Shown: piece after piece, positions 1,093 through 25,397 of the stretch | Position numbering within the stretch: position 1 is the stretch's first letter | Layout: each line of letters opens with the position of its first letter | From: an uncultured Saccharicrinis sp. | Lineage (GTDB): Bacteria; Bacteroidota; Bacteroidia; Bacteroidales; Marinilabiliaceae | Length of the DNA: 32,000 bases | Direction of reading: 5' to 3' | Assembly: GCA_963666825.2 (NCBI GenBank) | Contig: OY763044.2 | Coordinates: forward strand, 1,047,221 to 1,079,220 | Notes under the pieces: generated by a model | The model's database searches: none | What the model saw: the letters and a program-made list of their open reading frames with translations, nothing else | Told to the model about the DNA's origin: nothing | Position numbers and translations under genes: made by a program

Positions 1093-1953
1093 ATGAGACA
1101 ACTTAAAATAACAAAATCAATTACAAATCGCGAGAGTGCTTCCTTAGATAAGTATTTACAGGAAATAGGTCGTGAAGAATTGATATCTGTAGAAGAAGAA
1201 GTAGAATTAGCTCAAAGGATCAAAAAAGGTGATCAAGTTGCTTTGGAAAAGCTAACAAGAGCAAACTTAAGATTCGTAGTTTCTGTAGCAAAGCAATATC
1301 AAAATCAAGGACTTAGTCTTCCTGACTTAATTAACGAAGGAAACCTAGGGTTGATTAAAGCTGCAGAGAAGTTTGATGAGACGAGGGGATTTAAGTTTAT
1401 CTCTTATGCAGTATGGTGGATTCGTCAGTCTATTTTACAGGCATTAGCAGAGCAATCAAGAATTGTTAGATTACCATTAAATCAGGTTGGATCGTTAAAT
1501 AAAATTAACAAAGCTTATTCTAAGTTCGAGCAGGAAAATGAACGTAAGCCATCTCCTGAAGAATTAGCTGATCAATTAGAATTACCTGTTGATAAAGTTG
1601 CTGATACTTTAAGAGTTTCTGGACGTCACATTTCTGTTGATGCACCTTTTGTTGAAGGTGAAGACAATAGTTTATTAGATGTTCTTGTTAATGGGGATTC
1701 TCCAAATGCTGATAAAACTTTAATTAATGAGTCTTTAGCTCGTGAAATTGAAAGAGCATTGGCTACATTAACTGAAAGAGAATCTGATATTATTAAGCTA
1801 TTCTTTGGTATTCAAACTCAGGAAATGACACTTGAAGAGATTGGAGAAAGATTTGGATTAACCAGAGAAAGGGTAAGACAAATTAAAGAAAAAGCAATTA
1901 GAAGATTAAGACATACTTCAAGAAGTAAGTTATTGAAATCTTATTTAGGATAA
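1093..1953 (+). CDS. rpoD: primary RNA polymerase sigma factor (sigma-70 family, Bacteroidota short form without region 1.1)
   Basis: Region 2 motifs are present ([28 protein letters not shown]). Region 4.2 HTH is [28 protein letters not shown]. The 286-aa length is typical of Bacteroidota sigma-A. Confidence 0.95.
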
Positions 1954-2307: not shown

Positions 2308-3108
2308 ATGGTTGGTAAAGTATTTGATATAAAGCGTTTTGCATTAAATGATGGGCCTGGCATAAGAACTACTGTCTTTTTTAAAGGATGTCCTCTTAAT
2401 TGTATATGGTGCCATAATCCGGAAAGTATCTCTCCTGAGGTTGAGGAATATGATCAAGAGCGTATACTTGATGGTAAAAGATATACTTACAAACAAAAAA
2501 TAGGAAAACTGCTTACCGTTTCTGAATTAGAATCTGAAATATTAAAAGATATACATTTCTATAATCAAAGTGGTGGTGGTGTTACATTCTCTGGAGGAGA
2601 GCCTTTATTTCAATGTGATTTTTTAATTGAAGAAATAAAAGCTTGTAAGAAAAACGGATTACATGTAACTATAGATACTACCGGATTGTGTAAAACAGAA
2701 AAGTTAGATGAAATCAATAGATATACTGATTTGTTTTTATATGATATAAAGTTTGTTAGTTCTGAGTTACATTTAGAATATACAGGAGTTAACAATCATC
2801 TTATTATTGATAATCTTGATTATTTATTAAGTAAAAATGCTAATATAATAATTAGAGTTCCTGTAATTCCAGGTGTTAATGATACTCCACAATGTATATC
2901 GGATTTAAAACTGTTTATAAAGGACAGATCACATCAAATTAAAGAATTGCATTTTCTGCCATTTCATAATATCGGATCATCTAAGTATGACAGATTTAAA
3001 AAAGACTATAGATTGAGAGGATTAAAAAGTCAAAGTGAAAATGATTTAATTTATCTAAAAGAAGATTTTAAATTATTAGGCATTAAAATACAAATTGGTG
3101 GTATTTAA
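2308..3108 (+). CDS. glycyl-radical enzyme activating enzyme (radical SAM, PflA-like short form)
   Basis: N-terminal FDIKRFALNDGPGIRTTVFFKGCPLNCIWCHNPE contains the CX3CX2C radical-SAM cluster motif. GGGVTFSGGEP is the SAM-binding motif. The gene lies 24 nt upstream of a glycyl-radical enzyme. Confidence 0.9.
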   Translation: MVGKVFDIKRFALNDGPGIRTTVFFKGCPLNCIWCHNPESISPEVEEYDQERILDGKRYTYKQKIGKLLTVSELESEILKDIHFYNQSGGGVTFSGGEPLFQCDFLIEEIKACKKNGLHVTIDTTGLCKTEKLDEINRYTDLFLYDIKFVSSELHLEYTGVNNHLIIDNLDYLLSKNANIIIRVPVIPGVNDTPQCISDLKLFIKDRSHQIKELHFLPFHNIGSSKYDRFKKDYRLRGLKSQSENDLIYLKEDFKLLGIKIQIGGI

Positions 3109-3132
3109 TATACTGCCTTAAATATTGTACGT

Positions 3133-5496
3133 ATGAATCAAAGAATACAAAAACTTCGTCAGCAAAGTTTACAAGCAATAAATACAATGTCTGTAGAAAG
3201 AGCTCGTTTGGTTACCGACTTCTATAAAAGTATTGAAGGATTAAATTATTCAGTGCCTGAAACAAGAGCACTTTCGTTTAAATATATATTAGAGCATAAA
3301 AAATTATGTGTAAATGAAGGAGAATTAATTGTTGGTGAAAGAGGTCCTGAACCAAAAGCTACTCCTACCTATCCTGAGGTTTCATTACATTCTTTAGATG
3401 ACTTACAAATTCTGGATCAGAGAGAAAAAGTAAGCTTTAAAGTTGATGAAGAAACCCGACAGTTATATGATTCTACAATAATTCCTTTCTGGGAAGGAAA
3501 AAGTAACAGAGATAAGATTATGGCCAGAATGACTCCTGAATGGCATGAGTCATACAAGGCTGGTATTTTTACTGAATTCCAGGAACAACGTGCTCCTGGG
3601 CATACTGTTTTGGGTGATAAGATATATCATAAAGGCATAAATGATATTATTAATGACATTCAATTAGTTAAAGAAAAATTAGATCAAGATTCTGATTCTT
3701 TAAATAAATCAAAGTTAGATGAGCTCAATGCAATGGAAATTGCAGCAAAAGCAATTGTAATGTATGCTTATCGAAATGCAGAATACTTGAAGGAGTTGGC
3801 AAGTGTAGAGATAGATGAAATAAGAAAGGCAGAATTAATGGAAATGGCTCAGGTTTGTATGAATGTTCCTGCAAATGCTCCACAAACATTTCATGAGGCT
3901 CTTCAATATTACTGGTTTGTTCATATTGGTGTTATAGCGGAAGTAAATCCATGGGATTCGTTTAATCCAGGAAGGTTAGATCAACATCTGTATCCATTTT
4001 ATATTAATGATTTAAAAAAGGGTAAATTAACAAAAGAGCGGGCAAAAGAACTATTAATGTCTTTCTGGGTTAAATTTAATAATCAACCAGCACCTCCTAA
4101 GAATGGTGTTACCGCTAAAGAAAGTAATACTTATACCGATTTTGCATTAATAAATTTAGGTGGTGTAAAAGCCGATGGTTCTGATGCTGTTAATGAACTA
4201 TCCTTTTTGATTTTAGATGTAATTGAGGAGATGAGACTGCTTCAGCCTAGTTCAATGGTTCAGATTAGTAAGGAAAATCCTGATGAATTTATTCACAGGA
4301 CATTACATATTACAAAGACTGGATTTGGACAGCCTTCTTATTTTAATACAGATGCTATAGTACAAGAGTTGGTTAATCAAGGTAAGGATATTGTTGATGC
4401 TCGTAATGGTGGTGCCAGTGGATGTGTTGAGTCTGGTGCATTTGGAACTGAGGCTTATTGGCTGACAGGTTATTTTAATATTCCAAAGGTTTTAGAAATT
4501 ACTTTGCATAATGGAATTGATCCTAAATCAGGTAAAAAATTAGGACTGGAAACAGGAGCATTAGATACTTTGGGTACTTATGAAAAATTATTGGATGCTT
4601 TTGAAAAACAATTGAATTATTTCTTAGATATCAAGATCGAAGGAAATAGAAGAATTGAAAATCTAATAATGAATGAATTACCAGTACCTTTCTTAAGTTT
4701 ATTTATAGAGGACTGTATAGGTAATGCTCAAGATTATAATGCAGGAGGAGCAAGATATAATACAAGTTATATTCAGGGTGTTGGTTTAGGTAGTATTACA
4801 GATTCATTAACATCAATACAATACCATGTTTATGATCAAAAAAACATTACACTGGATGAGTTGGTAAAAGCAACTGATTGTAATTTTAAGGGGTATGAAG
4901 AGTTGCGATATAACCTCATTTTTGAAACACCAAAATTTGGAAATGATGATGCCTATGCTGATTCTAATGCTGAAAAAGTATTTGAAATGTACTATGATGC
5001 TATAAATGGTAAGGAAAATTCAAGAGGAGGTACATTTAGAGTGAATCTTTTACCTACCACTTGTCATGTGTATTTTGGACAGGTTATGCAGGCTTCTGTA
5101 GATGGCCGTAAGGATGGAGAGCCTCTTTCAGAAGGTATTTCTCCAGTTCAGGGTGCTGATAAAAACGGACCTACAGCTGTTATAAATTCAATGTTGAAAA
5201 TAGATCATACAAGGACTGGAGGAACTCTTTTAAACCAGAAGTTTCTTCCTCAGTTTTTTGAAACAGAAGGTGGGATTATTAAACTTACTCATTTAATAAG
5301 AACTTACTTTAATCAATTAGGTCATCATATTCAGTTTAATGTCGTAGATGCAGATACATTAAGGGATGCTCAAAAACATCCTGAAAAATACCAGGATTTA
5401 ATTGTAAGGGTTGCTGGTTACAGTGATTATTTTAATGACTTGACAATAGAGTTACAAGAGGAGATCATTAAACGTACTGCTCAGTGTAATTTATAA
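3133..5496 (+). CDS. hypD: glycyl radical enzyme, dehydratase (PFL2) class; most likely trans-4-hydroxy-L-proline dehydratase (HypD type)
   Basis: C-terminal glycyl-radical motif RVAGYSDYF (G762). Thiyl loop GCVE (C431, E433). F149, H157, D275, S331, F337, Y447 and T642 are each identical to, and at a constant -3 offset from, the C. difficile HypD active-site residues as I recall them (F152, H160, D278, S334, F340, Y450, T645; C434/E436/G765). GRE membership is near certain; substrate assignment is less so. Confidence 0.75.
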   Translation: MNQRIQKLRQQSLQAINTMSVERARLVTDFYKSIEGLNYSVPETRALSFKYILEHKKLCVNEGELIVGERGPEPKATPTYPEVSLHSLDDLQILDQREKVSFKVDEETRQLYDSTIIPFWEGKSNRDKIMARMTPEWHESYKAGIFTEFQEQRAPGHTVLGDKIYHKGINDIINDIQLVKEKLDQDSDSLNKSKLDELNAMEIAAKAIVMYAYRNAEYLKELASVEIDEIRKAELMEMAQVCMNVPANAPQTFHEALQYYWFVHIGVIAEVNPWDSFNPGRLDQHLYPFYINDLKKGKLTKERAKELLMSFWVKFNNQPAPPKNGVTAKESNTYTDFALINLGGVKADGSDAVNELSFLILDVIEEMRLLQPSSMVQISKENPDEFIHRTLHITKTGFGQPSYFNTDAIVQELVNQGKDIVDARNGGASGCVESGAFGTEAYWLTGYFNIPKVLEITLHNGIDPKSGKKLGLETGALDTLGTYEKLLDAFEKQLNYFLDIKIEGNRRIENLIMNELPVPFLSLFIEDCIGNAQDYNAGGARYNTSYIQGVGLGSITDSLTSIQYHVYDQKNITLDELVKATDCNFKGYEELRYNLIFETPKFGNDDAYADSNAEKVFEMYYDAINGKENSRGGTFRVNLLPTTCHVYFGQVMQASVDGRKDGEPLSEGISPVQGADKNGPTAVINSMLKIDHTRTGGTLLNQKFLPQFFETEGGIIKLTHLIRTYFNQLGHHIQFNVVDADTLRDAQKHPEKYQDLIVRVAGYSDYFNDLTIELQEEIIKRTAQCNL

Positions 5497-5513
5497 TTTT
5501 AAGATTAGATAAA

Positions 5514-6788
5514 ATGAAGATTAGTAGTGTAGTTATTATATTCTTAATTTGCTTTTCAAGCATTGTTGCTGCTCAGGACGAAATACTAAAAGAGCTCCAA
5601 AGTTATAATCGATTACAAATTGAAAAGATTAAAACATTCGCCGGTTATAAAGAGTCTTTTTTAATTATGATGACTCAACCTTTGGATCATGAAAAACCAG
5701 AATTGGGCACCTTTACTCAACGAATTTGGTTGAATCATTTGGATGAGAAAGCTCCGATGGTAATGGTAACAGAAGGTTATTCCGCACCTAAGAATTATCA
5801 AACAGAGATAGCAAAAGAATTAAATGCAAATCAGATTATTGTTGAGCATAGATATTTTTTGGAATCAACTCCTAATCCTAAAGACTGGAAATATCTTACC
5901 GTAAAAAATGCAGCTGCAGATCATCATGATATTATTAAATTATTTAAAAATATTTATAAAGGAACGTGGCTTACAACAGGTATAAGTAAAGGAGGTCAAA
6001 CTACTCTTTTTCATAGAGCTTTTTATCCAAAAGATGTCGATGTTTCTGTTCCATATGTTGCACCTATTAATTTTTACAAAGAAGATACTAGGCTTCTTGA
6101 CTTTTTTAAGCAGGTAGGCACAAAAGAGGATAGAGACAAAATACATCAGTTTCAGCAATTGGTTTTAAAACGTAAGAAGGAATTGTTGCCTTTGTTTATA
6201 GATTATTGTGATAAGAATGGTTTATCTTTTTCAATGGGATATGAAAAAGCTTATGAATTAGCTGTATTAGAGTATCCATTTGCTTTTTGGCAATGGGGAA
6301 ATCCTGTAAGTGAGATTCCTACAGAAGGAGAATCTGATGATTTGATAATGGCTCATTTTATAAAAGGAGCAAGTCCTGATTATTTTGCCGACCAGGTAAT
6401 GAAACAATATGAGTCTTTCTTTTATCAGGCATATAAAGAATTAGGCTATTATAATTATGTACCCGGAGATTTAAAGCCATTAATGAATTGTGTAAAACAA
6501 GATACTATTTCAAATTGTGTTTTTGCACCCGGTGGTGATACATTGTCTTATAATAGAAATACAATGGCTGAGGTCAATAATCAGCTCCATAAGAAAAATC
6601 CTCGAATGGTTTTAATTTGTGGAGAATATGATCCCTGGGGGGCAACTTCTCTAGATGTTACAGGAATGAGTCATTCTCTTAAGATTATAAAGCCAAAGGG
6701 ATCTCATAAAGCAAGAATTAATAATTTACCTATAGAAACAAAAGAGGAAGTTTGGAGGCTGTTAAAAAAATGGATGAAAGTAGATTGA
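5514..6788 (+). CDS. secreted alpha/beta-hydrolase serine peptidase, S28/S37-like (prolyl-type peptidase family)
   Basis: Signal peptide MKISSVVIIFLICFSSIVAAQ. The family-typical N-terminal block QPLDHEKPELGTFTQRIWLNH is present. Nucleophile elbow GISKGG (GxSxG). The gene starts 17 nt after the GRE stop, so it is probably co-transcribed. Confidence 0.65.
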   Translation: MKISSVVIIFLICFSSIVAAQDEILKELQSYNRLQIEKIKTFAGYKESFLIMMTQPLDHEKPELGTFTQRIWLNHLDEKAPMVMVTEGYSAPKNYQTEIAKELNANQIIVEHRYFLESTPNPKDWKYLTVKNAAADHHDIIKLFKNIYKGTWLTTGISKGGQTTLFHRAFYPKDVDVSVPYVAPINFYKEDTRLLDFFKQVGTKEDRDKIHQFQQLVLKRKKELLPLFIDYCDKNGLSFSMGYEKAYELAVLEYPFAFWQWGNPVSEIPTEGESDDLIMAHFIKGASPDYFADQVMKQYESFFYQAYKELGYYNYVPGDLKPLMNCVKQDTISNCVFAPGGDTLSYNRNTMAEVNNQLHKKNPRMVLICGEYDPWGATSLDVTGMSHSLKIIKPKGSHKARINNLPIETKEEVWRLLKKWMKVD

Positions 6789-9454: not shown

Positions 9455-9883
9455 ATGAAATTTAGTACTAAAATAAGATATGGGATTAGAGCTATGGTAT
9501 CTATTGCCAGTGAGCATTCTGGTAACGGTGTTTTTCAAAAGGAAATAGCCGAAAATCAGATGATTTCCATCAAGTATCTGGACCAGATTATAAGTGCTTT
9601 AAAGGCTGCTGAATTGATCGTAAATGTTAGAGGTAAAAAGAGTGGATATATTCTGACAAAAGAGCCTTCTGAAATTAAAATGCTTGATATATACAGTGCT
9701 TTTGAAGGTGGAATTTATGTAATAGATTGTTTGAATGATGCTGTGCAATGTGATTTTCAAGATAAATGTAAATCATTGTTGTTTTGGGAAAGTTTAAATA
9801 AACTAATTCATAATTATTTTACAACAGTCACCTTGCAAGATGTACTGGATGGTAAGATGCCTGCTGAGATAAATTTATTATAA
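9455..9883 (+). CDS. Rrf2-family transcriptional regulator with a three-Cys (Fe-S type) motif
   Basis: N-terminal MKFSTKIRYGIRAMVSIA plus a winged-HTH (FQKEIAENQMISIKYLDQIISALKAAELI). C92-X6-C99-X5-C105 sits at the position of the IscR/NsrR cluster ligands. The gene starts 10 nt after the preceding gene. Confidence 0.9.
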   Translation: MKFSTKIRYGIRAMVSIASEHSGNGVFQKEIAENQMISIKYLDQIISALKAAELIVNVRGKKSGYILTKEPSEIKMLDIYSAFEGGIYVIDCLNDAVQCDFQDKCKSLLFWESLNKLIHNYFTTVTLQDVLDGKMPAEINLL

Positions 9884-9943: not shown

Positions 9944-12325
9944 CTATAAGTTGATATTAAAACCAGCTAAGTATAGAGCTCCTATTTTATCCATGAAAAC
10001 ATATTCTTGAGTATCATTATCAAGTACATTTCTTGCATTTATAAATACGTTAATATTTTCGCTTACCTTATAGTTTACTTTAGTATTTAATAAAAATTTA
10101 CCATTTATATGTCCTGTGTATTTAGGATCAGCAGGTCTTGAAGAGCTTGTGTCGTATTGACTATATAAATAGTATTTGTCGTAATAGTATCCCTGAGCTG
10201 TAATATCCATTTTTTTGAATGGTTTATAGGTTAGAGCAAGACTGCCCCAAAATGTAGGAATAGCTTCATTATCCACATCGTCTTTATAATTATCTTTTGA
10301 TGGTTGAGCATCTGATGTGTAATATGCCTTAGGTGGAGTACCAGTTGCATAATATGCTACAACATCTGTTTGAAGTGCGATTGTATTTTCTGTTCCTTGA
10401 ATTAAAGCAATATCATTTCTATTGTAATCCATAAAATTGTCTACAGTAGTTTTTTGATAGGTAACATGAGCTTTCATAAAAAGTTTTTCAGATAGAACCA
10501 TATCAGCACTAATCGTTAATCCATATTGTTTACTCTCGATATCTAAGGGTCTATGAGATGTGTATAAAGTTGTTTTAGGATTAATATTGTAGTTAGCATC
10601 GTAAACAACAGTTCTCATACTATCTGGCATTAAAGCACTAAAGTCTTTGGCTGTATTGTAAAAAGCTTCAATATCAATTAGTAATTTTTTGGATGGACGT
10701 GTTCTGAATCCTAGTTCTATCATATCCATCGTCATTAGGTTGGGATTGTCACTTCCTGAAAAACGTACATACTCTGGAGATCCTAAACCATCACGATCCC
10801 ATGTATAATTACTAAAGGCATTAATCATAAAAGTACTTTGATTTGCTCTGGAGTAAACAGCTCTTACTAAGTTGTTATCATTAATTTTATAAGATGCAAT
10901 AAATTGATAAGATGGTTTCCATTCGTCAGGAACATTGTATTTTTCTGTTCGAAGAGCAGCTACTAACCTTAGTTTTTCAATTGGGTTATAATCAAAGCGT
11001 GCACTTACAGCATAGTTTCTTAGTGCAACTCTTTTATTGAAATATCCATCACCAATATTATCAATGTAATCTCTGTCATCATAATAAACCGACTGGTAAC
11101 TTAAGCCTGGACGTATATTTAATTTATTAAATTTTAATAGGTAGTCAAGTGAGATATTATATTGTTCAGTAGCTTGAACCCAACCTTTGTGCCCTTTATT
11201 AAAGTTCTGAATTACATTGTTTGAAGCCATTTGTAGGTTGAAACCATAAATGTTCCCAATCAGATTAGTGTAATAACCGTAAGATAAACGATCGTTATAT
11301 GGAGTTGGATTATCACCAATTGTTGAAGTACAAGCCAGATCATCTAAATATCCTGCACTTAAATTAAATGATAAATCATCATTTGCTTTAAAATCAACAT
11401 AAGCGTTTACGCCCATCTTTTCTTTAGCTCTTCCTGAATCATCAAAAAGTTCAGATGCAACATCATTACTCCATTTTAAATCATCATTTCTTTGTCCGTA
11501 TGTTTCCAGATCAAGATATTCATCATCATAAAAAGCATATATTTTATCAGTGTATCTGTCACGTTGTTCAAAATAATATGCAACTCCAGCAGCAAACTTG
11601 TCATTAAAACTTTTGCGGATACTAAAATCTCCGATATAAGAAGATAAAGAACCTGCTTGAAAATTAGCTGAAACAAGAGGTGATTCTGTAGATGTCTTTT
11701 TCGAGATAAGGTTTATTACACCATTTACGGCATTAGGTCCATATAATGCACTGCAGGGTCCTCTTACAATCTCAATTCTATCTAATTCACCTAGACTAAT
11801 TGGAAGAGTTTCCCATAGTATTCCTCCCATACCATAATTAAATACAGGTCGACCGTCGATCATTACTAAAGTTGTAGTGTTTTCTGCGTAGATTAACATG
11901 TTATTCATTGGCATGTTTTGCCCACCTCTAATCTGTACATCATAGTTACCATTTGTTTTTTCGCGAACAATTACGCCTGGAACCATTCTTAATGCCTCTT
12001 CTATCGAGGTTGCACCATTGGTTATTATCTCGTCATAACTTAATACTGTAGTTGATAAAGGTGAGTCAAATAAACTTTCCTCAGATTTAGATGCAGATGT
12101 TACATCTTTATTCAATAGCATTTCATATAACTCTTCCATTGTAGATGCACCTACAATATCCATAAGTTTCATGATCTCTTCCAAATCATAGGCAGATAGT
12201 TCCTCTATGTTCATTTGTAAAACTTCTTCGCGAGAAAGTGTATTTACATCTTTTTTTGTTTCCTGGGCAAATATTGATATCGAAAACATCAATATGAATA
12301 GGGCGTATAAATATTTATTTATCAT
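9944..12325 (-). CDS. TonB-dependent outer-membrane receptor (paralogue 1) with an acidic N-terminal extension
   Basis: Signal peptide present. Plug motifs EEALRMVPGVIV, LVMIDGRPV and DRIEIVRGPCSALYGPNAVNGVINLI are followed by a ~600-aa barrel. There is no SusC-type carboxypeptidase-regulatory domain and no SusD neighbour. Confidence 0.9.
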   Translation of the reverse strand: MINKYLYALFILMFSISIFAQETKKDVNTLSREEVLQMNIEELSAYDLEEIMKLMDIVGASTMEELYEMLLNKDVTSASKSEESLFDSPLSTTVLSYDEIITNGATSIEEALRMVPGVIVREKTNGNYDVQIRGGQNMPMNNMLIYAENTTTLVMIDGRPVFNYGMGGILWETLPISLGELDRIEIVRGPCSALYGPNAVNGVINLISKKTSTESPLVSANFQAGSLSSYIGDFSIRKSFNDKFAAGVAYYFEQRDRYTDKIYAFYDDEYLDLETYGQRNDDLKWSNDVASELFDDSGRAKEKMGVNAYVDFKANDDLSFNLSAGYLDDLACTSTIGDNPTPYNDRLSYGYYTNLIGNIYGFNLQMASNNVIQNFNKGHKGWVQATEQYNISLDYLLKFNKLNIRPGLSYQSVYYDDRDYIDNIGDGYFNKRVALRNYAVSARFDYNPIEKLRLVAALRTEKYNVPDEWKPSYQFIASYKINDNNLVRAVYSRANQSTFMINAFSNYTWDRDGLGSPEYVRFSGSDNPNLMTMDMIELGFRTRPSKKLLIDIEAFYNTAKDFSALMPDSMRTVVYDANYNINPKTTLYTSHRPLDIESKQYGLTISADMVLSEKLFMKAHVTYQKTTVDNFMDYNRNDIALIQGTENTIALQTDVVAYYATGTPPKAYYTSDAQPSKDNYKDDVDNEAIPTFWGSLALTYKPFKKMDITAQGYYYDKYYLYSQYDTSSSRPADPKYTGHINGKFLLNTKVNYKVSENINVFINARNVLDNDTQEYVFMDKIGALYLAGFNINL

Positions 12326-12334
12326 TTGTGTTGT

Positions 12335-12838
12335 TTATTTTATTTCAATTCCTAGGGCTATAAGTTTTTGATCTACATTCAATTTGTGCGATATGATGTT
12401 TTGTCGAGAAATTTCATATTGCATTTTACCTCCTTGTAATGTGTAGTTTATACCAGCTCCTTTATTACATGCATTAGAGTTTTCGCAAATAATAAGTGTG
12501 GGTTTATTGGAGAAATAGTTTTTAGCTTCATCTATAGTTGAAGACTTTGATGGCGGGATGTAAAAAATATTTGCATCAGAGGCATCTTTTATATCTTTTA
12601 CGCTTTTAACAACAATGGTTCGGTTGTTTATTTTTCGCGCTCCGGCTAGTTTATTTAGTTCTGGAATTATTTCATCATTTCCAAGAATTCCAATGATGAA
12701 TTCTTCTTGATTTGATTGATTAGGCCATTCAATATATTTAGCAAAGTTAAACATAAACAATGCTTTAAACATTGATTGTTGCCCAGATATGGATAATGAT
12801 ATAAAAATCATTGCCACAACTATTAATCTTTTCTTCAT
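12335..12838 (-). CDS. YfiR-like (DUF4154) periplasmic protein, paralogue 1
   Basis: Signal peptide, then FKALFMFNFAKYIEWP (the family-typical xNFxKYVEWP block). The C-terminal MQYEISRQNIISHKLNVDQKLIALG aligns with ITFEANLDSIARSGVRVHPSVLKLA of P. aeruginosa YfiR as I recall it. Its stop lies 9 nt before the receptor start. Confidence 0.75.
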   Translation of the reverse strand: MKKRLIVVAMIFISLSISGQQSMFKALFMFNFAKYIEWPNQSNQEEFIIGILGNDEIIPELNKLAGARKINNRTIVVKSVKDIKDASDANIFYIPPSKSSTIDEAKNYFSNKPTLIICENSNACNKGAGINYTLQGGKMQYEISRQNIISHKLNVDQKLIALGIEIK

Positions 12839-12871
12839 GGTTGAGATTTTTGTTCTGGATTAATTATCAAT

Positions 12872-12881
12872 TGCGTATTCG
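12872..12881 (-). promoter_or_regulatory. conserved 10-mer (CGAATACGCA on the coding strand) in the leader of module 1; identical copy at 16043-16052
   Basis: TGCGTATTCG is exactly identical in both module leaders. In both it is preceded (coding sense) by AACCTTTT at an 11-12 nt distance and followed by AAAAA(T/C)CTCAA. Confidence 0.35.
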
Positions 12882-12924
12882 TAACATTTGGGAAAAGGTT
12901 TCAGGTAAATGAAATATTTATATC

Positions 12925-12955
12925 AGGCAGGAAATTAGTGAATTAGTTCCTGCCT
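12925..12955 (-). terminator. hairpin between the two YfiR-like/receptor modules (no clear U-tract)
   Basis: AGGCAGGAA / TTCCTGCCT 9-bp stem with a 13-nt loop, 12 nt downstream of the receptor-2 stop. Confidence 0.4.
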
Positions 12956-12966
12956 AAAGAATATTA

Positions 12967-15486
12967 TTAAAATTTAAAGTTTACACCTGCAAAAATCATG
13001 ATTGGCATTTTATCCATGTAAGCAAATTCATTAGAATCCTGATTTAATAAGTTTTTACCAGTAATGTGGAAAGCCAAATTTTCAGTTGCCTTATAGGATA
13101 CCTTTGTATTGAAAATTATTTTACTATCAATGTCTACGTTTCCATATTGATTTTCAAATGTTTGATCTCCATAGAAATAAGCATTTGGTAAAATTTCAAT
13201 TTTTTTACAAGGACGATAAGTTATTGATAGTCCACCATAATATGATGGTGTAGCTTTGTGTTCGTAGTTGTTTTTATAGTTGTCAGGAACAGCATCTGTA
13301 GTGCTTGCAATAACATAATCAACCTGAGTTGGATCAATAGTTCCTCCTAATACTCCTGCTCCAAATTCTGTTAATGCACTTCCAATTTTTGTTTCCAGGT
13401 CAGGATCGTACATCATTGAACCAGCTTGATATGTAACAACATCATCACGACTTACTTGATTATAGTTATCTAGTTTTGTTTGTTGAACTGAGATATGTCC
13501 ATTCAATATTAATTTTTCAGATATAATCCAGTCTGCTGATATTGAAATACCTTTTTGTTTGCTTACCAAATCCATGTTCATGTATTGCATATTTACAATT
13601 CCATTTACATCAGGAGTTGCTAGTCCGCCTATTACAGCTAAAGGATTAAATACAGCTAGTGAAGTTTGAGCAGGCATTAAAGCTCCAAAGTTTTCAGATT
13701 TATTATAATAAGCTTCAAAATCTATTAATATGTTTTTAGCAGGACGAACTCTGTATCCTAGTTCAAACATGTCAGTGGTCATCAAATCATAGTTTTTATC
13801 ACCATCAAACTGCATTACTTTAGGAAAAGATCGATTAACAATATTCCATGTGTAATTAGAGTGTGCATTTACAAGAAATGGAGATTGATTTGCTCTTGAA
13901 TATACTAAACGAAATAAATGGTTGTCATTTAATTTATATGAACCAATAAATTGCCACGAAGTATATAAGTCATCTGGGTGATTATATTTTTCAGTTCTTA
14001 ATGCAGCAATAAAACGAAGTTTTTCAGTTGGTTTATAATCAAAACGTAAACTACCAGCCATAATTTCAATGTCTTTTCTTCCATTTAAATATCCTCTGCC
14101 TGTTGATAGAATATAAGGTGAATCGTCATATGAAATATGTTGATAGTTAATTCCTGGACGGATATCAAGCTTATCAAGTTTTAAGTTGTATTCAGCTAGG
14201 GCATTGTATTGTCGAAGGTCTAATTCAAAACCTTCATTTCCTGTCATATAGTCAATGTCTCCGCCGTTGTAGTTTGCTTGTAAAGTAAAATCTTTAATTT
14301 GAGCTCTTAAATCAATGTAGCCTGTTTTCGAGATCTTACCTGAATATGGAGTTGGCATGTCACCCATAGTTGATGTCAAAATATCAGAATTTTGATATCC
14401 TCCATTAATGCTAATACTTGATGTAGTATTAGGTGTTAATTCCAGGTATCCGTTTATAGCATATCTTTCTTTAGAATTTTCTGGATGAAGAAAAATATCA
14501 TCAGGGCCATAAATGGTAATGATTTCTCCATCATCATTTGTTCCTGTTTCGCCTACTTCAGGAAATACTTTGTATGAATTTCCATTGTCAACAGCATATA
14601 AATTTCTTAGTTGTTCCATTGAGTAATATCCATTACCTACAGACTCACCATTAAGCAGATATTTATTAGAACCATCACTGTTTAATCCATTGTAAACATA
14701 GATTTTATCGGTTTCTCTGTCTCTGGTTTCGTAATTTGCAGTGATACCAAAAGCGAGGATATTATTTACTTGTTTGCGGAAGGCCACATCGCCAATGTAA
14801 GAATTCATACTTCCTGCTTGCAGATTTCCTGAAACAAGTGGCGTTTCATTAGTGATATCAACTGTAATAATATTGATAACACCCGATACTGCATTAGGAC
14901 CATATAAAGCACTTGACGGACCTCGAACAACTTCAATGCGGTCAACATCTTCAAAACTTACAGGTAATGATTCCCATAATGTACCACCATGAGAGTAGTT
15001 AAATACTGGTCGGCCATTAATCATTACAAGTGTTTGAGAGTTTTCAGAGTAAAGCATCATATTTTTACCCGGTATGTTGTCATTACCTCTGATATGAACA
15101 TCAAAATTCCCGTTTGTTTTTTCACGAACTATTACACCCGGAACCATTCTTAATGCTTCTTCAAAACAAGTTGCTCCGGAAGCAAGAATTTCATCATGGC
15201 TGAGTACGGTTGTAGAAAGAGGTGAATCAAATAAGCTTTCTTCGGATTTTGATGCAGATGTAACATCTTTATTTAAAAGTAATTCATATAATTCTTCAAT
15301 GGTAGAAGCGCCAACAATATCCATCAATTTCATGATTTCTTCTAAATCGTAGGCAGATAATTCTTCTATGTCCATTTGTAACACTTCCTCCCTGGTAAGT
15401 GTATTTACATCTTTTTTTGTTTCTTGAGCATATACCGACAATGAAAATATCAGTATTAGCACTAGTGATATATATTTATTTAACAT
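12967..15486 (-). CDS. TonB-dependent outer-membrane receptor (paralogue 2) with the same acidic N-terminal extension
   Basis: Same architecture as 9944-12325. Plug motifs EEALRMVPGVIV, LVMINGRPV and DRIEVVRGPSSALYGPNAVSGVINII are present. It ends in a C-terminal …GVNFKF. Confidence 0.9.
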   Translation of the reverse strand: MLNKYISLVLILIFSLSVYAQETKKDVNTLTREEVLQMDIEELSAYDLEEIMKLMDIVGASTIEELYELLLNKDVTSASKSEESLFDSPLSTTVLSHDEILASGATCFEEALRMVPGVIVREKTNGNFDVHIRGNDNIPGKNMMLYSENSQTLVMINGRPVFNYSHGGTLWESLPVSFEDVDRIEVVRGPSSALYGPNAVSGVINIITVDITNETPLVSGNLQAGSMNSYIGDVAFRKQVNNILAFGITANYETRDRETDKIYVYNGLNSDGSNKYLLNGESVGNGYYSMEQLRNLYAVDNGNSYKVFPEVGETGTNDDGEIITIYGPDDIFLHPENSKERYAINGYLELTPNTTSSISINGGYQNSDILTSTMGDMPTPYSGKISKTGYIDLRAQIKDFTLQANYNGGDIDYMTGNEGFELDLRQYNALAEYNLKLDKLDIRPGINYQHISYDDSPYILSTGRGYLNGRKDIEIMAGSLRFDYKPTEKLRFIAALRTEKYNHPDDLYTSWQFIGSYKLNDNHLFRLVYSRANQSPFLVNAHSNYTWNIVNRSFPKVMQFDGDKNYDLMTTDMFELGYRVRPAKNILIDFEAYYNKSENFGALMPAQTSLAVFNPLAVIGGLATPDVNGIVNMQYMNMDLVSKQKGISISADWIISEKLILNGHISVQQTKLDNYNQVSRDDVVTYQAGSMMYDPDLETKIGSALTEFGAGVLGGTIDPTQVDYVIASTTDAVPDNYKNNYEHKATPSYYGGLSITYRPCKKIEILPNAYFYGDQTFENQYGNVDIDSKIIFNTKVSYKATENLAFHITGKNLLNQDSNEFAYMDKMPIMIFAGVNFKF

Positions 15487-15500
15487 GGATTTGTCTTCAA

Positions 15501-16004
15501 TTATTTTACTTCAATTCCTAAAGAGATTAATTTTTGGTCAACTTTTAATTGGTGAGATTCAATGTTTTTTCTACAAATCTCATACTTTAGTTTTCCTTCT
15601 AGTAAAGTGTAGTTAATTGCAGTACCATCTGCACATGCACCCTTTTTTTCACTAACAATTAATGTTGGTTTGTTGTTAAAAAAAGAAACGACTTCACTTA
15701 TGTTACCTGATTTAGATTCAGGAATAAAAAATAATTGAGCATTAGATACTTCAGAGGGAGATTTAACACTCTTTACAACAATGCTTTTGTTGTTAATTTT
15801 TTTTGAACTGGCTAGCTTTTTAAGCTCAGTAACAATATCATCATTACCATAAACACCAATGACGAACTCATTTTGATTTGATAGGTTGGGCCATTCAATG
15901 TATTTTGCAAAATTAAACATAAATAGTGCTTTAAACATTGATTGTTGGCCGGTTAGGGATAATGTCAGAACCAACATTACCAATACAGTCAACTTTTTCT
16001 TCAT
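15501..16004 (-). CDS. YfiR-like (DUF4154) periplasmic protein, paralogue 2
   Basis: 167 aa, colinear without indels with the 12335-12838 product and sharing the same FKALFMFNFAKYIEWPN block. Its stop lies 14 nt before the receptor-2 start. Confidence 0.75.
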   Translation of the reverse strand: MKKKLTVLVMLVLTLSLTGQQSMFKALFMFNFAKYIEWPNLSNQNEFVIGVYGNDDIVTELKKLASSKKINNKSIVVKSVKSPSEVSNAQLFFIPESKSGNISEVVSFFNNKPTLIVSEKKGACADGTAINYTLLEGKLKYEICRKNIESHQLKVDQKLISLGIEVK

Positions 16005-16042: not shown

Positions 16043-16052
16043 TGCGTATTCG
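16043..16052 (-). promoter_or_regulatory. second copy of the conserved leader 10-mer (module 2)
   Basis: TGCGTATTCG lies 39-48 nt upstream of the 16004 start. AAAAGGTT is at 16065-16072, as at 12893-12900. Confidence 0.35.
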
Positions 16053-16421
16053 ATACTAAAAAGTAAAAGGTTACCTTATTTAGATGAAATTAATATTAAA
16101 ATAATAAGGTATAATCAGTATAAAATGTGGTTTAAACTAAAGCTACCCCATATAGGATAATAGTAGTTGAGGTTTTGTTGTTTAATAATATATTGAAAAT
16201 AAGAATGATGTATGTTTTCTTGAATCGATTTGTTGCATTGTGTTTAGAAAAAAAGTTTGAGTTATTATATGAGTGTTATTTAGTTGAATTTGTAGTAAGT
16301 TTTGATAAACGCTCTGTTTTTTTACATTAAAATTAAAACATTAAGCACTTTCACGTGTTTAATTTCCCTTTTGTTAAGAAAAAATATTGGTTTATAAATA
16401 TATCATTTCTCAACAATTATT

Positions 16422-16694: not shown

Positions 16695-18110
16695 ATGTCA
16701 ACAAAATTAATTGTCATGGAATTACCATTTGCAGAATCATATAAAATAAAGATGGTTGAACCCATCAGAAAGAGTACTCGAGAAGAACGAGAGAGGTGGA
16801 TTAAGAAAGCAAATTACAATTTATTTAATTTGAAAAGTAATCAGGTGTTTATTGACTTGCTGACAGATAGTGGAACCGGTGCTATGAGCGACCGTCAGTG
16901 GGCAAGCATGATGCTTGGGGATGAAAGTTATGCAGGCGCTTCGTCGTATTACAATTTAAAACAGTCAATTAAAAACATCTTAGGCTTTGATTACTTTTTA
17001 CCAACGCATCAAGGACGAGCTGCTGAAAATGTTTTGTTCTCTGCCTTAGTATCAGAAGGGGATGTTGTACCCGGAAATACACATTTTGATACAACAAAGG
17101 GACATATTGAGTTTCGAAAAGCATCTGCTATAGATTGTACAATAGATGAGGCGTTCGATACAACTATTTATCATCCCTTTAAAGGAAATATAGATTTAAA
17201 TAAATTGGAGAATGTATTTATTCAGTATACCAATAAAAAAATTCCTTGTATCATTGTAACAGTTACCTGTAACTCTTCCGGAGGACAGCCGGTATCAATG
17301 CAGAACCTAAAAGAGGTTTATGAGTTGTCTAAACAATATGGAATTAGAGTAATTTTTGATTCAGCTCGTTTTGCTGAAAATGCATATTTTATTAAAACGA
17401 GAGAAGAAGGGTATGCCCATAAAACAATTAAAGAGATTGTTGCAGAAATGTATACCTATGCTGATGGAATGACCATGAGTAGTAAAAAGGATGCAATCGT
17501 TAATATGGGTGGTTTTATTGCTTTACGAGAAGAAGACTTGTTTAAAAAAGCAGCTCAGTTTAATATTATTTACGAGGGATACATCACTTATGGAGGAATG
17601 TCAGGTCGTGATATGAATGCTTTGGCACAAGGTTTGGATGAGGGAACGGAGTTTGATTATTTGGAAACAAGAATCAAGCAAATTGAATATTTAGGTAACA
17701 GATTAAAAGAATTTGGTGTTCCGGTGCAGGAACCATTTGGTGGGCATGCTATTTTTGTGGATGCCAAACGTTTTTTACCACATTTACCAGTAGAACAGTT
17801 CGTAGCACAAACATTGGCTATTGAGTTATATAAAGAGGCTGGAGTGAGAGGAGTGGAAATAGGAACCTTATTGGCTGATAGAGATCCCAAAACAAGAGAA
17901 AATAGATATCCAAAATTGGAACTATTGCGATTGGCCATTCCTAGAAGAGTTTATACAAACAATCATATGGATGTGATTGCGGTTGCATTAAAGAATGTGT
18001 ATGATCGAAGAAATGAAATAAAAACGGGCTATATGATTGTGAATGAAGCACCAATTTTGCGTCATTTTACCGTAGAGTTAGCTCCATTTCAAAATGAAAT
18101 GAGTTATTAA
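16695..18110 (+). CDS. tnaA: tryptophanase (tryptophan indole-lyase), PLP-dependent beta-eliminating lyase
   Basis: FIDLLTDSGTGAMS, PTHQGRAAE, DSARFAENAYFIK (tyrosine phenol-lyase has DATRCVENAYFIK), the PLP-Lys block MSSKKDA, and LRLAIPRRVYTNNHMD. The true start may be the second Met at 16716 (MELPFAESYKIKMVEP). Confidence 0.9.
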   Translation: MSTKLIVMELPFAESYKIKMVEPIRKSTREERERWIKKANYNLFNLKSNQVFIDLLTDSGTGAMSDRQWASMMLGDESYAGASSYYNLKQSIKNILGFDYFLPTHQGRAAENVLFSALVSEGDVVPGNTHFDTTKGHIEFRKASAIDCTIDEAFDTTIYHPFKGNIDLNKLENVFIQYTNKKIPCIIVTVTCNSSGGQPVSMQNLKEVYELSKQYGIRVIFDSARFAENAYFIKTREEGYAHKTIKEIVAEMYTYADGMTMSSKKDAIVNMGGFIALREEDLFKKAAQFNIIYEGYITYGGMSGRDMNALAQGLDEGTEFDYLETRIKQIEYLGNRLKEFGVPVQEPFGGHAIFVDAKRFLPHLPVEQFVAQTLAIELYKEAGVRGVEIGTLLADRDPKTRENRYPKLELLRLAIPRRVYTNNHMDVIAVALKNVYDRRNEIKTGYMIVNEAPILRHFTVELAPFQNEMSY

Positions 18111-19333: not shown

Positions 19334-21037
19334 TTGAATGAGATGGTAGAGTTTAAAGAAAAACATCTTAAGAGACTTGTTGTATATATTTTAACAGGTG
19401 TTTTTATCTTTTTGTTATTTGATTTTTATCAGGAGGTTCAAACGATAAAAAAGAATAAACAAGAAATATTAGGTAATGCTGCCTATCAAACATTCTTTAA
19501 GAATCTGTTGTATAGGCGTTGGGTAGCTATGCATGGTGGAGTTTATGTTCCTGTAACTTCGGATACGCCATCTAATCCATATTTAGATGTTGAAAATAAA
19601 GATGTAATTACCACAGATAGTTTGAGGCTTACTTTAGTTAATCCGGCTTATATGACTCGTCAGGCTTTTGACTTAAGTAATAAGTTAGGCGCTGAAGAGG
19701 TAGAAAAGATTACCAGTCTGAATCCAATTAATCCGGCGAACGCTCCTGATCCCTGGGAAGCAAAGGTCCTGAGAATGTTTGAAAATGGAACTGAATCATA
19801 TTCGGAGTTTGATACGATAAATGGACGGGAATTCTATCGATATATGCACTCGTTGGTAGTAGAAGAGTCTTGTTTGCAATGTCATCAATACCAGGGGTAT
19901 AAATTAGGTGATCTAAGAGGTGGTATATCTGTTGCAATATCTACAGAGATTTATAGAGAAAGAGGTGAGCGTTTCATATGGTCGGAGGCACGCTCAAATC
20001 TGTTTATATTTATCTTGCTTATAGGAGTTGTATCTGCATTTTATTGGTATGTTAAACGAATGCTTAATAAGGAATTAAGTTTAAAGCGCGAAAAAGATCT
20101 TAAGAATATAGAGATAGAGCAATTTTTTGAACATACGCCGATAAGTATATTTGTTGTAAATGATAATATGCATTTAATAAATGCAAATACATTGGGAAAA
20201 GAGATTATTGGAGTAAATAAATTACCACGTAATAAAATTACAATAGGGCAGGCTATTGGATGTGGATACTTTGAGCAGGTAGGAGCATGTACTAATTATT
20301 TGAAATGTTGTACAAAATATCAAAAAGGGAAAAAATGTTCTTTAGCTGAGATGATTAAATATGCTTTAGCTTCCGGTCGCAATCAATTTAAAAAAGAGTT
20401 ATTTATAGATATTAATTCCGGAACAGAAATAGAGAAGAGAAGCTATGTTGTTTCAATAGTTCTGCTTAATCAGGATAATCATAAGAATGTGCTTCTTATG
20501 ATGGATGATGTTACCGAAACAGCTAAGAATGCAAAAGAACTCAAAAGGATAAATGCTCGTTTAAAAAGTGTTGAGAGTATTATTTATTATAAAGCCAAAT
20601 CAACAAATGATTTATTGGATGGTGCTTTAAAAGAAATCATTAATTATACCAGTAGTGATACAGGTGCTGTTTACCATTATGATAGTATTAAAGACTTGTT
20701 TATATTGAATAACTGGTCAGATTCATATAGTCTTACGTTGGATAATCATTCTAATTTGTCTTCAGATCTGGAGTGTTTGTCAAGTGCGGTAAAATTACGT
20801 CAGCCAATCATTCGTAATAAACCAAATAAAGGTTATTCTTTTTACAAGAAGGGAGCTAATAAAGACTTAAAGTCCCTTGCAATTCCAATTATTCGAGATG
20901 GAAAAATATTGGCAGTAGTTTGGGTGGCCAGTAAAACAAAGAGTTATTCTGATTTTGATGCACAGCAGATTACTTTGTTGCTTGATGCAACCTGGGTTTT
21001 ATTTGAGAGGATGAATCTAATGGAAAAAGCACTCTGA
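19334..21037 (+). CDS. membrane sensor protein: TM - DUF3365 (Tll0287-like c-type heme domain) - TM - PAS-like (Cys-rich) - GAF; no recognisable output domain
   Basis: NPANAPDPWEAKVL…FYRYMHSLVVEESCLQCH…GDLRGGISV is the DUF3365 signature, including the CxxCH heme motif at 19871-19885. Two hydrophobic helices span residues ~14-32 and ~222-240. The C-terminal GAF-like region includes …LAIPIIRDGKILAVVWVAS…. The track start is TTG; the first ATG is at 19343. Confidence 0.8.
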   Translation: MNEMVEFKEKHLKRLVVYILTGVFIFLLFDFYQEVQTIKKNKQEILGNAAYQTFFKNLLYRRWVAMHGGVYVPVTSDTPSNPYLDVENKDVITTDSLRLTLVNPAYMTRQAFDLSNKLGAEEVEKITSLNPINPANAPDPWEAKVLRMFENGTESYSEFDTINGREFYRYMHSLVVEESCLQCHQYQGYKLGDLRGGISVAISTEIYRERGERFIWSEARSNLFIFILLIGVVSAFYWYVKRMLNKELSLKREKDLKNIEIEQFFEHTPISIFVVNDNMHLINANTLGKEIIGVNKLPRNKITIGQAIGCGYFEQVGACTNYLKCCTKYQKGKKCSLAEMIKYALASGRNQFKKELFIDINSGTEIEKRSYVVSIVLLNQDNHKNVLLMMDDVTETAKNAKELKRINARLKSVESIIYYKAKSTNDLLDGALKEIINYTSSDTGAVYHYDSIKDLFILNNWSDSYSLTLDNHSNLSSDLECLSSAVKLRQPIIRNKPNKGYSFYKKGANKDLKSLAIPIIRDGKILAVVWVASKTKSYSDFDAQQITLLLDATWVLFERMNLMEKAL

Positions 21038-23984: not shown

Positions 23985-24004
23985 TTCTTTTAGTTTTCAG
24001 ATAA

Positions 24005-24049
24005 CAGTCTTCAGTCAACTGCTAACTGGAGACTGCCAACTGCATACTG
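24005..24049. repeat. 7-nt-periodic tetramer array in the dinB-dnaE2 spacer: CAGT x2 then ACTG x5 (+ strand)
   Basis: CAGT occurs at 24005 and 24012. ACTG occurs at 24018, 24025, 24032, 24039 and 24046. On the mRNA strand this reads CAGU x5 followed by ACUG x2. Confidence 0.7.
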
Positions 24050-24071
24050 AGGGCTGTTTTACTTTCAATGT

Positions 24072-25223: not shown

Positions 25224-25236
25224 CTTTTTTATAAAA

Positions 25237-25253
25237 TGATTAGAAAATAATCA
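25237..25253. promoter_or_regulatory. candidate operator 1: TGATTA-N5-TAATCA perfect palindrome
   Basis: Lies 14-30 nt upstream of the dinB-like ATG, in the divergent control region shared with the S24 repressor gene. Confidence 0.45.
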
Positions 25254-25266
25254 AAGTTGTGTTTAT

Positions 25267-25290
25267 AATATAATCAAAAATGATTATATT
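25267..25290. promoter_or_regulatory. candidate operator 2: AATATAATCA-AAAA-TGATTATATT perfect 10-bp inverted repeat
   Basis: Uses the same TAATCA/TGATTA hexamers in the opposite arrangement. Lies 44-67 nt upstream of the dinB-like ATG. Confidence 0.45.
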
Positions 25291-25321
25291 TGGAAATATT
25301 AGTCTGGGTGATTTTGCTTTT

Positions 25322-25338
25322 TGATTAGTATATAATCT
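25322..25338. promoter_or_regulatory. candidate operator 3: TGATTA-N5-TAATCT (11/12 palindrome)
   Basis: Lies 60-76 nt upstream of the repressor ATG at 25398. Confidence 0.4.
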
Positions 25339-25397
25339 GAATAAAGTGGAACATCTTCAGTTATTTGAGTTGTTAATATCTTTTTTATTGAATAGCT

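Follow-up and report, generated by a model that had tools for sequence, protein, structure and literature searches.

A tandem gene pair for a YfiR-fold periplasmic protein and a TonB-dependent receptor in Saccharicrinis, a possible core of a cell-surface signalling route

What a periplasmic YfiR-like protein does when the gene coupled to it encodes an outer-membrane receptor is the question raised by a 32-kb stretch of DNA from an uncultured Saccharicrinis sp. (Marinilabiliaceae, Bacteroidota), here called the window, in which coordinates count from the first letter. The list of open reading frames (ORFs) of the window contains two minus-strand modules with the gene orders Y1->T1 and Y2->T2, where Y stands for the YfiR-like protein and T for a TonB-dependent receptor. 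Their coordinates, lengths and gaps are exactly those given by the initial annotation (Table 1), with a spacer of 14 nt between Y1 and T1 (TTGAAGACAAATCC) and of 9 nt between Y2 and T2 (ACAACACAA), each pair lying on one strand. Y1 and Y2 are 63% identical, the alignment of T1 with T2 spans both ends at 47% identity, and both sets of paralogs are old. A domain search found no GGDEF, EAL, HisKA, HATPase, HAMP or OmpA-like gene anywhere in the 32 kb, in agreement with the earlier statement that neither a cyclase nor a kinase is encoded locally. The comparisons described below suggest, tentatively, that the pair may belong to a signalling route that starts at the cell surface.

Both Y proteins match the Pfam family PF13689 (DUF4154, 'YfiR/HmsC-like') over its full length, covering profile positions 3-142 of 143, with 109.4 bits (E 2e-31) for Y1 and 107.9 bits (E 6e-31) for Y2 against a cutoff of 24.9, and on these matches they are assigned to the DUF4154 family. 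The AlphaFold2 model of Y1 was confident (predicted local distance difference test, pLDDT, 87.6; predicted template modelling score, pTM, 0.82). In the Foldseek ranking of PDB structures for this model, the top 13 were all P. aeruginosa YfiR (E 4e-7, template modelling (TM) scores of 0.66-0.79, ~14% identity), followed by a single-domain substrate-binding protein (SBP) of Rhodothermus marinus and then by single lobes of ABC-type binding proteins. A PDB profile search with Y matched YfiR alone (E 4e-5). As modelled, Y1 has the YfiR three-dimensional fold. Hydrophobic N-terminal signal peptides were read from the sequences (MKKKLTVLVMLVLTLSLTG/QQ and MKKRLIVVAMIFISLSISG/QQ), and since they are plain signal peptides without a lipobox cysteine, a soluble periplasmic location is predicted for the Y proteins.

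The fold does not make these proteins canonical YfiR. The canonical YfiR equivalog of NCBIfam, NF053586, gave 24.0 and 23.4 bits against a cutoff of 85, and the best NCBIfam model was NF053591 (TOL_0243 family YfiR-like), with 109.4 bits for Y1 and 100.5 bits for Y2, under its cutoff of 125. The YfiR of P. aeruginosa carries two conserved disulfide-forming cysteine pairs, which are not conserved here: Y1 and Y2 have two cysteines each with one position in common, and the family alignment has no invariant cysteine column. Y1 and Y2 are not the canonical YfiR of a YfiBNR system. The family is a large one, the Y profile matching 23,886 clusters at 50% identity, and a tblastn search of Y1 against plasmids gave no match. 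Four proteins from the representative search (P0058, P0084, P0144 and P0203) contain two or three DUF4154 domains in tandem and may represent steps between the single-lobe YfiR fold and the two-lobed binding proteins of the periplasm.

The Plug domain PF07715 was found in both receptors (T1 E 3e-23, T2 E 3e-20, Pfam). T2 also matches the TonB barrel PF00593 (E 4e-12), and the barrel of T1, which falls short of the Pfam threshold, was accepted because T1 is homologous over its full length to T2. Judged by these domains, T1 and T2 are TonB-dependent receptors, so that both families named in the initial annotation are confirmed by hidden Markov models, and the YfiR fold by the Y1 model. The best NCBIfam model for the receptors, NF053590 (TOL_0244 family), aligned with the plug region only, at 134.7 bits for T1 and 132.5 bits for T2 against a cutoff of 645, and PDB matches were likewise confined to the plug. 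The SusC/RagA signature TIGR04057 reached 17.4 bits in T1 against a cutoff of 46.2 and had no match in T2. No CarboxypepD_reg domain was found in T1 or T2 and no SusD neighbour beside them, and the modules do not have the make-up of a SusC/SusD-type uptake pair.

A distinctive part of the receptors is an acidic N-terminal extension with helix-prone repeats. A phmmer alignment pairs T1 VTSASKSEESLFDSPLSTTVLS with CirA, and T1 residues 75-79 fall at the position of the TonB box, of which VVTAS in CirA is a part. Because this alignment sets the position of the TonB box, residues 21-73 form an extension that precedes it. No STN domain (PF07660) was matched in T1 or T2 at E<=0.01 in Pfam. Identity between T1 and T2 is 95% over residues 21-95, 68% in the plug and 37-52% in the barrel, where large indels are found. 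Four-fold sites differ between the two genes as much in residues 21-95 (12/25) as gene-wide (78/142), and the N-terminal conservation is for this reason attributed to purifying selection rather than to gene conversion. The extension is common to Y-linked receptors of several Bacteroidota orders; in receptors of loci with the order T-Y, and in those beside kinase or SpoIIE sensors, it is shorter, with two or one 'LEELMxIxVxSxSK' units.

A similar gradient was found among the paralogs of every genome with at least two modules, where identity is 78-97% in the extension, 64-89% in the plug, 34-63% in the barrel and 62-96% in Y. This fits a variable external ligand-binding surface combined with a constant periplasmic interface. 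In six genomes, Y paralogs that are 86-96% identical stand beside barrels that are 34-63% identical, and since near-identical Y paralogs serve strongly diverged barrels, the comparison argues that Y is not the determinant of ligand specificity. The earlier argument that two modules side by side imply two specificities is strengthened by the divergence of the barrels of T1 and T2 and the conservation of their periplasmic parts.

A scan of species-representative genomes gave at least 542 relatives of Y, of which the best 80, distributed over 77 loci (cited by L-number), were examined; all are from Bacteroidota, of several orders, and they are not a random sample. T adjoins Y in 51 of the 77 loci, with one to three tandem modules per locus. 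Of 97 related Y genes, 60 are directly followed by a T homologue at a median gap of ~12 nt, and further ones are found in the order T-Y. By gene order, the pairing of Y with T is far beyond chance. The pair is kept in Marinilabiliales, Bacteroidales, Salinivirgaceae and Cytophagales, and 50 of 60 best-match tests agree with modules inherited as units. In close relatives, two or three Y-T modules stand in tandem at the same syntenic site, between DUF4382/tnaA and an Rrf2 regulator, and a relative at 44% identity has one Y-T pair between sbcCD and glyS. As the same pair occurs in different gene surroundings, it is an autonomous unit.

Besides the conservation of the pair, the survey revealed a third partner. 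In 30 of the 77 loci, an inner-membrane sensor was found beside Y or Y-T. Its sensor module comprises a first transmembrane segment, ~170 periplasmic residues that contain the motif SKMLxKNWVF and weakly match Pfam 4HB_MCP_1 (4HB, four-helix bundle), a second transmembrane segment and a HAMP domain. The outputs that follow, verified with Pfam, are a methyl-accepting chemotaxis protein (MCP) signalling domain, a hybrid histidine kinase, GAF(-PAS) or a GAF-PAS-SpoIIE phosphatase. The first 215 aa of the sensors are mutually homologous across these outputs (E 1e-16 to 1e-98), and all 30 sensor-module ORFs in the +-10 kb flanks sit <=3 kb from a Y or Y-T core. Of the sensors that were checked across the 77 related loci, none had a GGDEF output, and cyclic diguanylate (c-di-GMP) as the read-out proposed earlier is unsupported.

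The position of the sensor gene varies, with the arrangements MCP-Y-T (L027), sensor-Y-T-Y-T (L038, L041), T-Y-hybrid kinase (L049, L059), Y-Y-sensor-T (L030) and Y-T-sensor(SpoIIE) (L070, L074). A census of the 77 loci with a profile of the sensor module (A2) gave 39 with Y and T only, 18 with Y and a sensor (in two of these, T is one gene away), 12 with T, Y and a sensor, and 8 with Y alone. The same profile had zero matches in any reading frame of the window. Against a collection of 5.8 billion proteins it gave one unrelated short match (E<=1e-5, E<=10), in a search limited by its word index. The initial description of the modules as a system without partners holds for all 19 Marinilabiliaceae-type loci, the window among them, and it fails for the family as a whole.

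In one locus (L067) a DUF4154 domain and a histidine kinase are joined in a single protein, encoded immediately upstream of a TonB-dependent receptor gene. From the N-terminus it contains a signal/transmembrane segment, DUF4154 (residues 40-185), a Q/E/K-rich, coiled-coil-like stalk of ~150 aa, a transmembrane segment (338-356) and HisKA-HATPase. By a Rosetta-stone argument, this fusion points to the YfiR fold as a periplasmic signalling input working beside TonB-dependent receptors. The proposal that the receptor stands in for YfiB as the input at the outer membrane has gained support of a comparative kind, from the 30 sensor loci and this one fusion.

Both modules of the window are preceded by a promoter-like element, with the fuller consensus (G/T)(A/T)AACCTTTT-N11-12-CGAATA. 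The 10-mer CGAATACGCA occurs in the window at these two sites only (0.01 expected), and 3 matches to the pattern AACC-N15/16-CGAATA were counted where 0.04 would be expected. The element was found 24-60 nt upstream of nearly every Marinilabiliaceae Y gene (L002, L006-L023), and among the 35 CGAAT sites that precede Y genes, 24 have AAC 19-24 nt further upstream, compared with a background of 11.4%. Promoters of extracytoplasmic function (ECF) sigma factors have AAC in the -35 region followed by a T-tract, CGxA in the -10 region and a spacer of 14-17 nt (PMC5758882). The element resembles an ECF-sigma promoter rather than the usual Bacteroidota housekeeping promoter, and we infer from the sequence that it functions as a promoter and depends on a sigma factor. 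Neither ECF sigma nor anti-sigma genes were found in the window or in the annotated flanks of L001-L005; the sole sigma gene of the window (1093-1953) encodes regions 1.2, 2, 3 and 4 and is consequently not an ECF sigma. A sigma-70 promoter scan performed no better than on shuffles.

A hairpin lies right after the stop codon of T1. Its predicted RNA fold has -16.6 kcal/mol (z = -5.1), and none of 200 shuffles was equally stable; a consensus terminator scan passed over it on account of its 13-nt loop. The hairpin is probably a terminator or a processing site between the modules, each of which looks like a separate, co-regulated transcription unit. No riboswitch or other RNA family of Rfam was detected in the whole window at the gathering threshold, or in the 690-nt leader upstream of Y1 at E<=1, and this leader contains no convincing small ORFs.

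Two further observations concern the promoter-like element. The third match to AACC-N15/16-CGAATA (26168-26193, minus strand) is antisense within the 3' end of the LexA-like gene (25398-26204), and it could be a chance match or an antisense or ECF-dependent promoter. In L006, Y1 is identical to the Y1 of the window, and the region upstream of Y2 differs by single bases (CGAATACACA in place of CGAATACGCA; window 12839-12966 compared with L006:13105-13166).

The explanation that these data support best is a relay from the receptor through Y to an inner-membrane transducer, and we give it an even chance of being correct. T would bind an external ligand, and the ligands of T1 and T2 are taken to differ because of the divergence in their barrels and loops. 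A movement of the plug, dependent on TonB or on the ligand, would alter the exposure of the acidic extension before the TonB box; the extension, as the likely docking site, would capture or release Y, and the free or bound state of Y would set the activity of the transducer, as YfiR does with YfiN. Elsewhere in Bacteroidota, the transducer would be the sensor with the order transmembrane segment, 4HB-like module, transmembrane segment and HAMP that stands beside the pair; in this genome it is not adjacent. The ECF-like promoters before both modules suggest that the output might feed back through an alternative sigma factor. Within this relay we infer that Y contacts the extension and that a sigma factor is required, and likewise which way the signal runs, what the ligand is and which protein acts downstream.

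A wider reading, held with rather less confidence than the relay itself, is that the Y-T pair could be the core of a widespread and hitherto uncharacterised cell-surface signalling route of Bacteroidota. This route would use receptors with acidic repeats in place of STN as transducers that capture or release a YfiR-fold messenger, and 4HB-HAMP sensors under its control with interchangeable outputs (chemotaxis, two-component, partner-switching phosphatase), and in Marinilabiliaceae maybe also an ECF sigma factor that drives the promoters of the modules themselves. On this reading the tandem modules would act as an array of ligand-specific antennae into one pathway.

Several observations weigh against the relay. 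All 19 Marinilabiliaceae-type loci, the window included, consist of Y and T only, and the type of sensor associated with Y elsewhere is absent beside them. Approximately 8 of 32 positions conserved in sensor-linked Y proteins carry lineage-specific substitutions in the Y proteins of Marinilabiliaceae, in a comparison confounded by phylogeny, and because of these substitutions sensor binding may have been lost in this family. Each receptor keeps its own Y, which is unneeded under a pure common-messenger model. The co-occurrence statistics are also confounded by phylogeny.

Some of these points would be expected if Y were an accessory of uptake, that is, a periplasmic ligand-binding shuttle or chaperone from which a transporter or enzyme of the inner membrane receives the substrate taken over from the receptor, signalling playing no part in this genome. 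Each receptor comes with a Y of its own, Y1 has diverged from Y2, no sensor lies near any Marinilabiliaceae module, and PahP, the periplasmic partner of the receptor PahS discussed below, itself binds ligand. We nevertheless consider this role, the main rival of the relay, to be unlikely. No inner-membrane transporter gene was co-conserved with the pair among the flanks examined, the single-lobe Y is without the two-lobe cleft of true binding proteins, and the family is linked or fused to signal transducers elsewhere. Moreover, the close similarity of Y paralogs beside strongly diverged barrels in several genomes is the opposite of what would be expected of ligand-specific binding proteins.

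A more restricted role would be that of a gatekeeper, where Y binds the extension or the TonB box of its own receptor and modulates only TonB coupling or stability, with no downstream partner. The tight translational coupling (gaps of 9-14 nt) and the co-inheritance of the modules are in line with such a role, as are the 39 loci with Y and T and nothing else and the residues K25, A26, L27 and E37, which are conserved in receptor-linked Y proteins only and grouped on one helix, in a comparison confounded by phylogeny. However, the 18 loci in which Y and a sensor occur without an adjacent receptor, together with the kinase fusion, show that the fold acts on transducers, and no TonB-dependent receptor is known to need such a factor; this role is judged improbable. 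A canonical YfiBNR-type c-di-GMP system with the cyclase and the lipoprotein encoded elsewhere, in favour of which DUF4154 membership and the YfiR fold could be cited, is hardly credible given an equivalog score of 24 bits against a cutoff of 85, the non-conservation of the YfiR cysteine pairs, the absence of a GGDEF partner from all 77 loci examined and a conserved neighbour that is a receptor and not an OmpA-like lipoprotein.

The proposed relay can be compared with several known systems. With YfiBNR (TpbB) of P. aeruginosa, DgcN of E. coli and HmsCDE of Yersinia, it shares the Pfam family and fold of YfiR and the placement of a soluble periplasmic protein between a component of the outer membrane and an inner-membrane transducer with a HAMP domain. 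It differs in that the outer-membrane partner is an energised TonB-dependent receptor and not an OmpA-like lipoprotein, the Y-associated sensors have a 4HB-like periplasmic module where YfiN has a PAS-like one, no GGDEF output occurs in the surveyed loci, identity to YfiR is ~14%, and no transducer is adjacent in the window. An adjacent PAS-HAMP-GGDEF cyclase and an OmpA-like lipoprotein, which would mark membership of this system, were not found, neither domain being present in the 32 kb. In the account of Malone et al. 2012, YfiR-YfiN[PAS/HAMP] is an ancient modular core whose outputs are kinase, MCP or GGDEF-EAL and from which YfiB is usually absent; TonB-dependent receptors are nowhere mentioned there.

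The best NCBIfam models for Y and T, NF053591 and NF053590, are named after TOL_0243 and TOL_0244 of Thalassolituus oleivorans, and the names show that curators had already recognised an adjacent YfiR-like/receptor pair. The proteins of the window share this adjacency and are related to the two families, but they lie outside the equivalogs, under both cutoffs, and the proteobacterial TOL_0244 model begins only at T1 residue 68, without the long extension of Bacteroidota. On n-C28 alkane, TOL_0244 shows a sevenfold induction, and its similarity to OmpS, the receptor with which Alcanivorax senses alkanes, is ~40%. No functional study or discussion of TOL_0243 was found in the searchable literature.

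The closest characterised analogue, by description, is the PahS/PahP/PahK/PahR system of Cycloclasticus sp. P1, encoded by clustered genes, in which the receptor PahS signals through PahP to the kinase PahK (Wang et al. 2023, PMC10570129). This relay was supported by surface plasmon resonance, co-immunoprecipitation, two-hybrid and Förster resonance energy transfer assays (Wang et al. 2023, PMC10570129). The order of receptor, periplasmic protein and kinase is that of T-Y-kinase in L049 and L059, whereas the window has no kinase. PahP is a two-lobed periplasmic alpha/beta substrate-binding protein of 318 aa that binds the ligand itself and docks to the receptor, and the paper names neither YfiR nor DUF4154 (PMC10570129). 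Y, in contrast, has 167 aa and a single lobe; the Pah proteins were compared by description only.

Receptors of the FecA/FecR/FecI and FpvA type also have an extra N-terminal region before the TonB box and ECF-like promoter elements before the receptor operons. Here, however, the extension is something other than an STN domain, neither an anti-sigma nor an ECF sigma gene stands next to the modules, and the conserved partner is a soluble YfiR-fold protein; T1 and T2, with neither STN nor FecR/ECF sigma neighbours, are not FecA-type transducers. The protein that ranks second to YfiR in structural similarity to Y1, the R. marinus SBP RmSBP (PDB 5Z6V, 6K1X and 8WGL; TM scores of 0.55-0.58), has no detectable sequence similarity to Y, being absent from the PDB profile matches at E<=1. 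Its genes are reported near MCP genes, as in the Y-MCP loci described here; neither a function nor a link to a receptor has been reported for it.

The novelty ascribed to the locus is therefore partial: no functional study of a DUF4154-receptor pair was found in the literature, but NCBIfam models for the pair exist and the PahS/PahP/PahK relay has been characterised. As far as could be found, four things are undescribed: the conserved non-STN extension, the specific family of 4HB-HAMP partners whose outputs are interchangeable, the fusion of DUF4154 to a kinase and the ECF-like promoter element. Known routes from TonB-dependent receptors to the cytoplasm run from an STN domain to an anti-sigma factor, and the relay, if true, would be a second and mechanistically different route. 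The YfiR messenger principle, so far associated with c-di-GMP control in Proteobacteria, would also be extended to Bacteroidota, where its outputs would be chemotaxis, kinases and phosphatases. Marine Bacteroidota that degrade polysaccharides and proteins have multiplied the modules, which could thus explain the sensing of substrates that never freely enter the periplasm. Experiments could start from the extension and the promoter element, both conserved, and from the candidate contact helix on Y.

Table 1. Coordinates of the Y-T modules, their elements and related features. Positions without a prefix refer to the window; those with an L-number refer to the locus named.
Feature	Position	Strand	Description
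Y1	15501..16004	-	167 aa; periplasmic YfiR-fold (DUF4154) protein, predicted; type I signal peptide, no lipobox Cys
T1	12967..15486	-	839 aa; TonB-dependent outer-membrane receptor
Y2	12335..12838	-	167 aa; periplasmic YfiR-fold (DUF4154) protein, predicted; Y1 paralogue
T2	9944..12325	-	793 aa; TonB-dependent receptor; T1 paralogue
T1 N-terminal extension, residues 21-73	15268..15426	-	acidic, helix-prone LxEELxxLMxIVGAS-type repeats; before TonB box
T2 N-terminal extension	12107-12265	-	near-identical to T1 extension
T1 TonB-box-like segment, residues 74-80	15247..15267	-	DVTSASK; phmmer alignment to CirA
T1 plug, residues 85-203	14878..15234	-	Pfam Plug
Promoter-like element before Y1	16047..16072	-	AACCTTTT-N12-CGAATA; CGAATA end 42 nt from ATG
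Promoter-like element before Y2	12876..12900	-	AACCTTTT-N11-CGAATA; CGAATA end 37 nt from ATG
Hairpin after T1 stop	12923..12957	-	11-bp stem GGCAGGAA.../...TTCCTGCC
Sensor-module ORFs	L036:10550-12478; L038:6459-8402; L027:8111-9649; L049:10505-14383; L070:12852-15968		25 others besides
DUF4154-histidine kinase fusion	L067:3836-5785	+	immediately upstream of the receptor gene in the next row
TonB-dependent receptor beside the fusion	L067:6138-8546		
Tll0287/GAF protein	19334-21037	+	transmembrane segments 11-29 and 215-233; periplasmic Tll0287-like region with CLQCH haem-c motif; cytoplasmic GAF; no recognised output

Among the neighbouring genes, the Tll0287/GAF gene had been pointed out as the nearest signalling gene. 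It does encode an output-less haem/GAF membrane protein, but a link to the modules was not supported: as a candidate for the missing partner it was rejected on the present evidence, since it has no similarity to the Y-associated sensors (E<=10) and is syntenic in L006-L010 only. A guess at the ligand from the neighbours (tnaA, hypD, the peptidase and Rrf2, and haem- or PQQ-type receptor genes in relatives) was likewise discarded, the synteny being confined to Marinilabiliaceae and absent in L003-L005.

The tryptophanase gene tnaA (16695-18110, plus strand; equivalog 886 bits against a cutoff of 750) is divergent from Y1 over the 690-nt intergenic region. Its synteny with the modules is present in Labilibacter (L002) and absent in L001 and in distant relatives. 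YfiR reportedly binds L-Trp and vitamin B6, and the proximity of tnaA may be a coincidence. At the other end of the modules, a regulator of the Rrf2 family (IscR/CymR-like; 9455-9883, plus strand; L001:19581-19988) is convergent with the last receptor gene and syntenic in close relatives, which have additional receptor genes nearby, accompanied by HmuY and by GSDH/cytochrome c.

Further from the modules, a cassette of the SOS-mutagenesis type (21045-26204) contains genes for a DnaE2-like error-prone polymerase (21045-23984, minus strand) and an ImuB/Y-family IMS protein (24072-25223, minus strand), and divergent from them is the LexA-like gene mentioned above (plus strand), which encodes an HTH-S24 peptidase repressor. 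On the other side, the genes for HypD, a glycyl-radical trans-4-hydroxy-L-proline dehydratase (3133-5496; NCBIfam equivalog 1215 bits against a cutoff of 1100), a radical-SAM activase (2308-3108) and an S37-type peptidase (5514-6788) make up a cluster (2308-6788) whose predicted function is anaerobic hydroxyproline/peptide catabolism.

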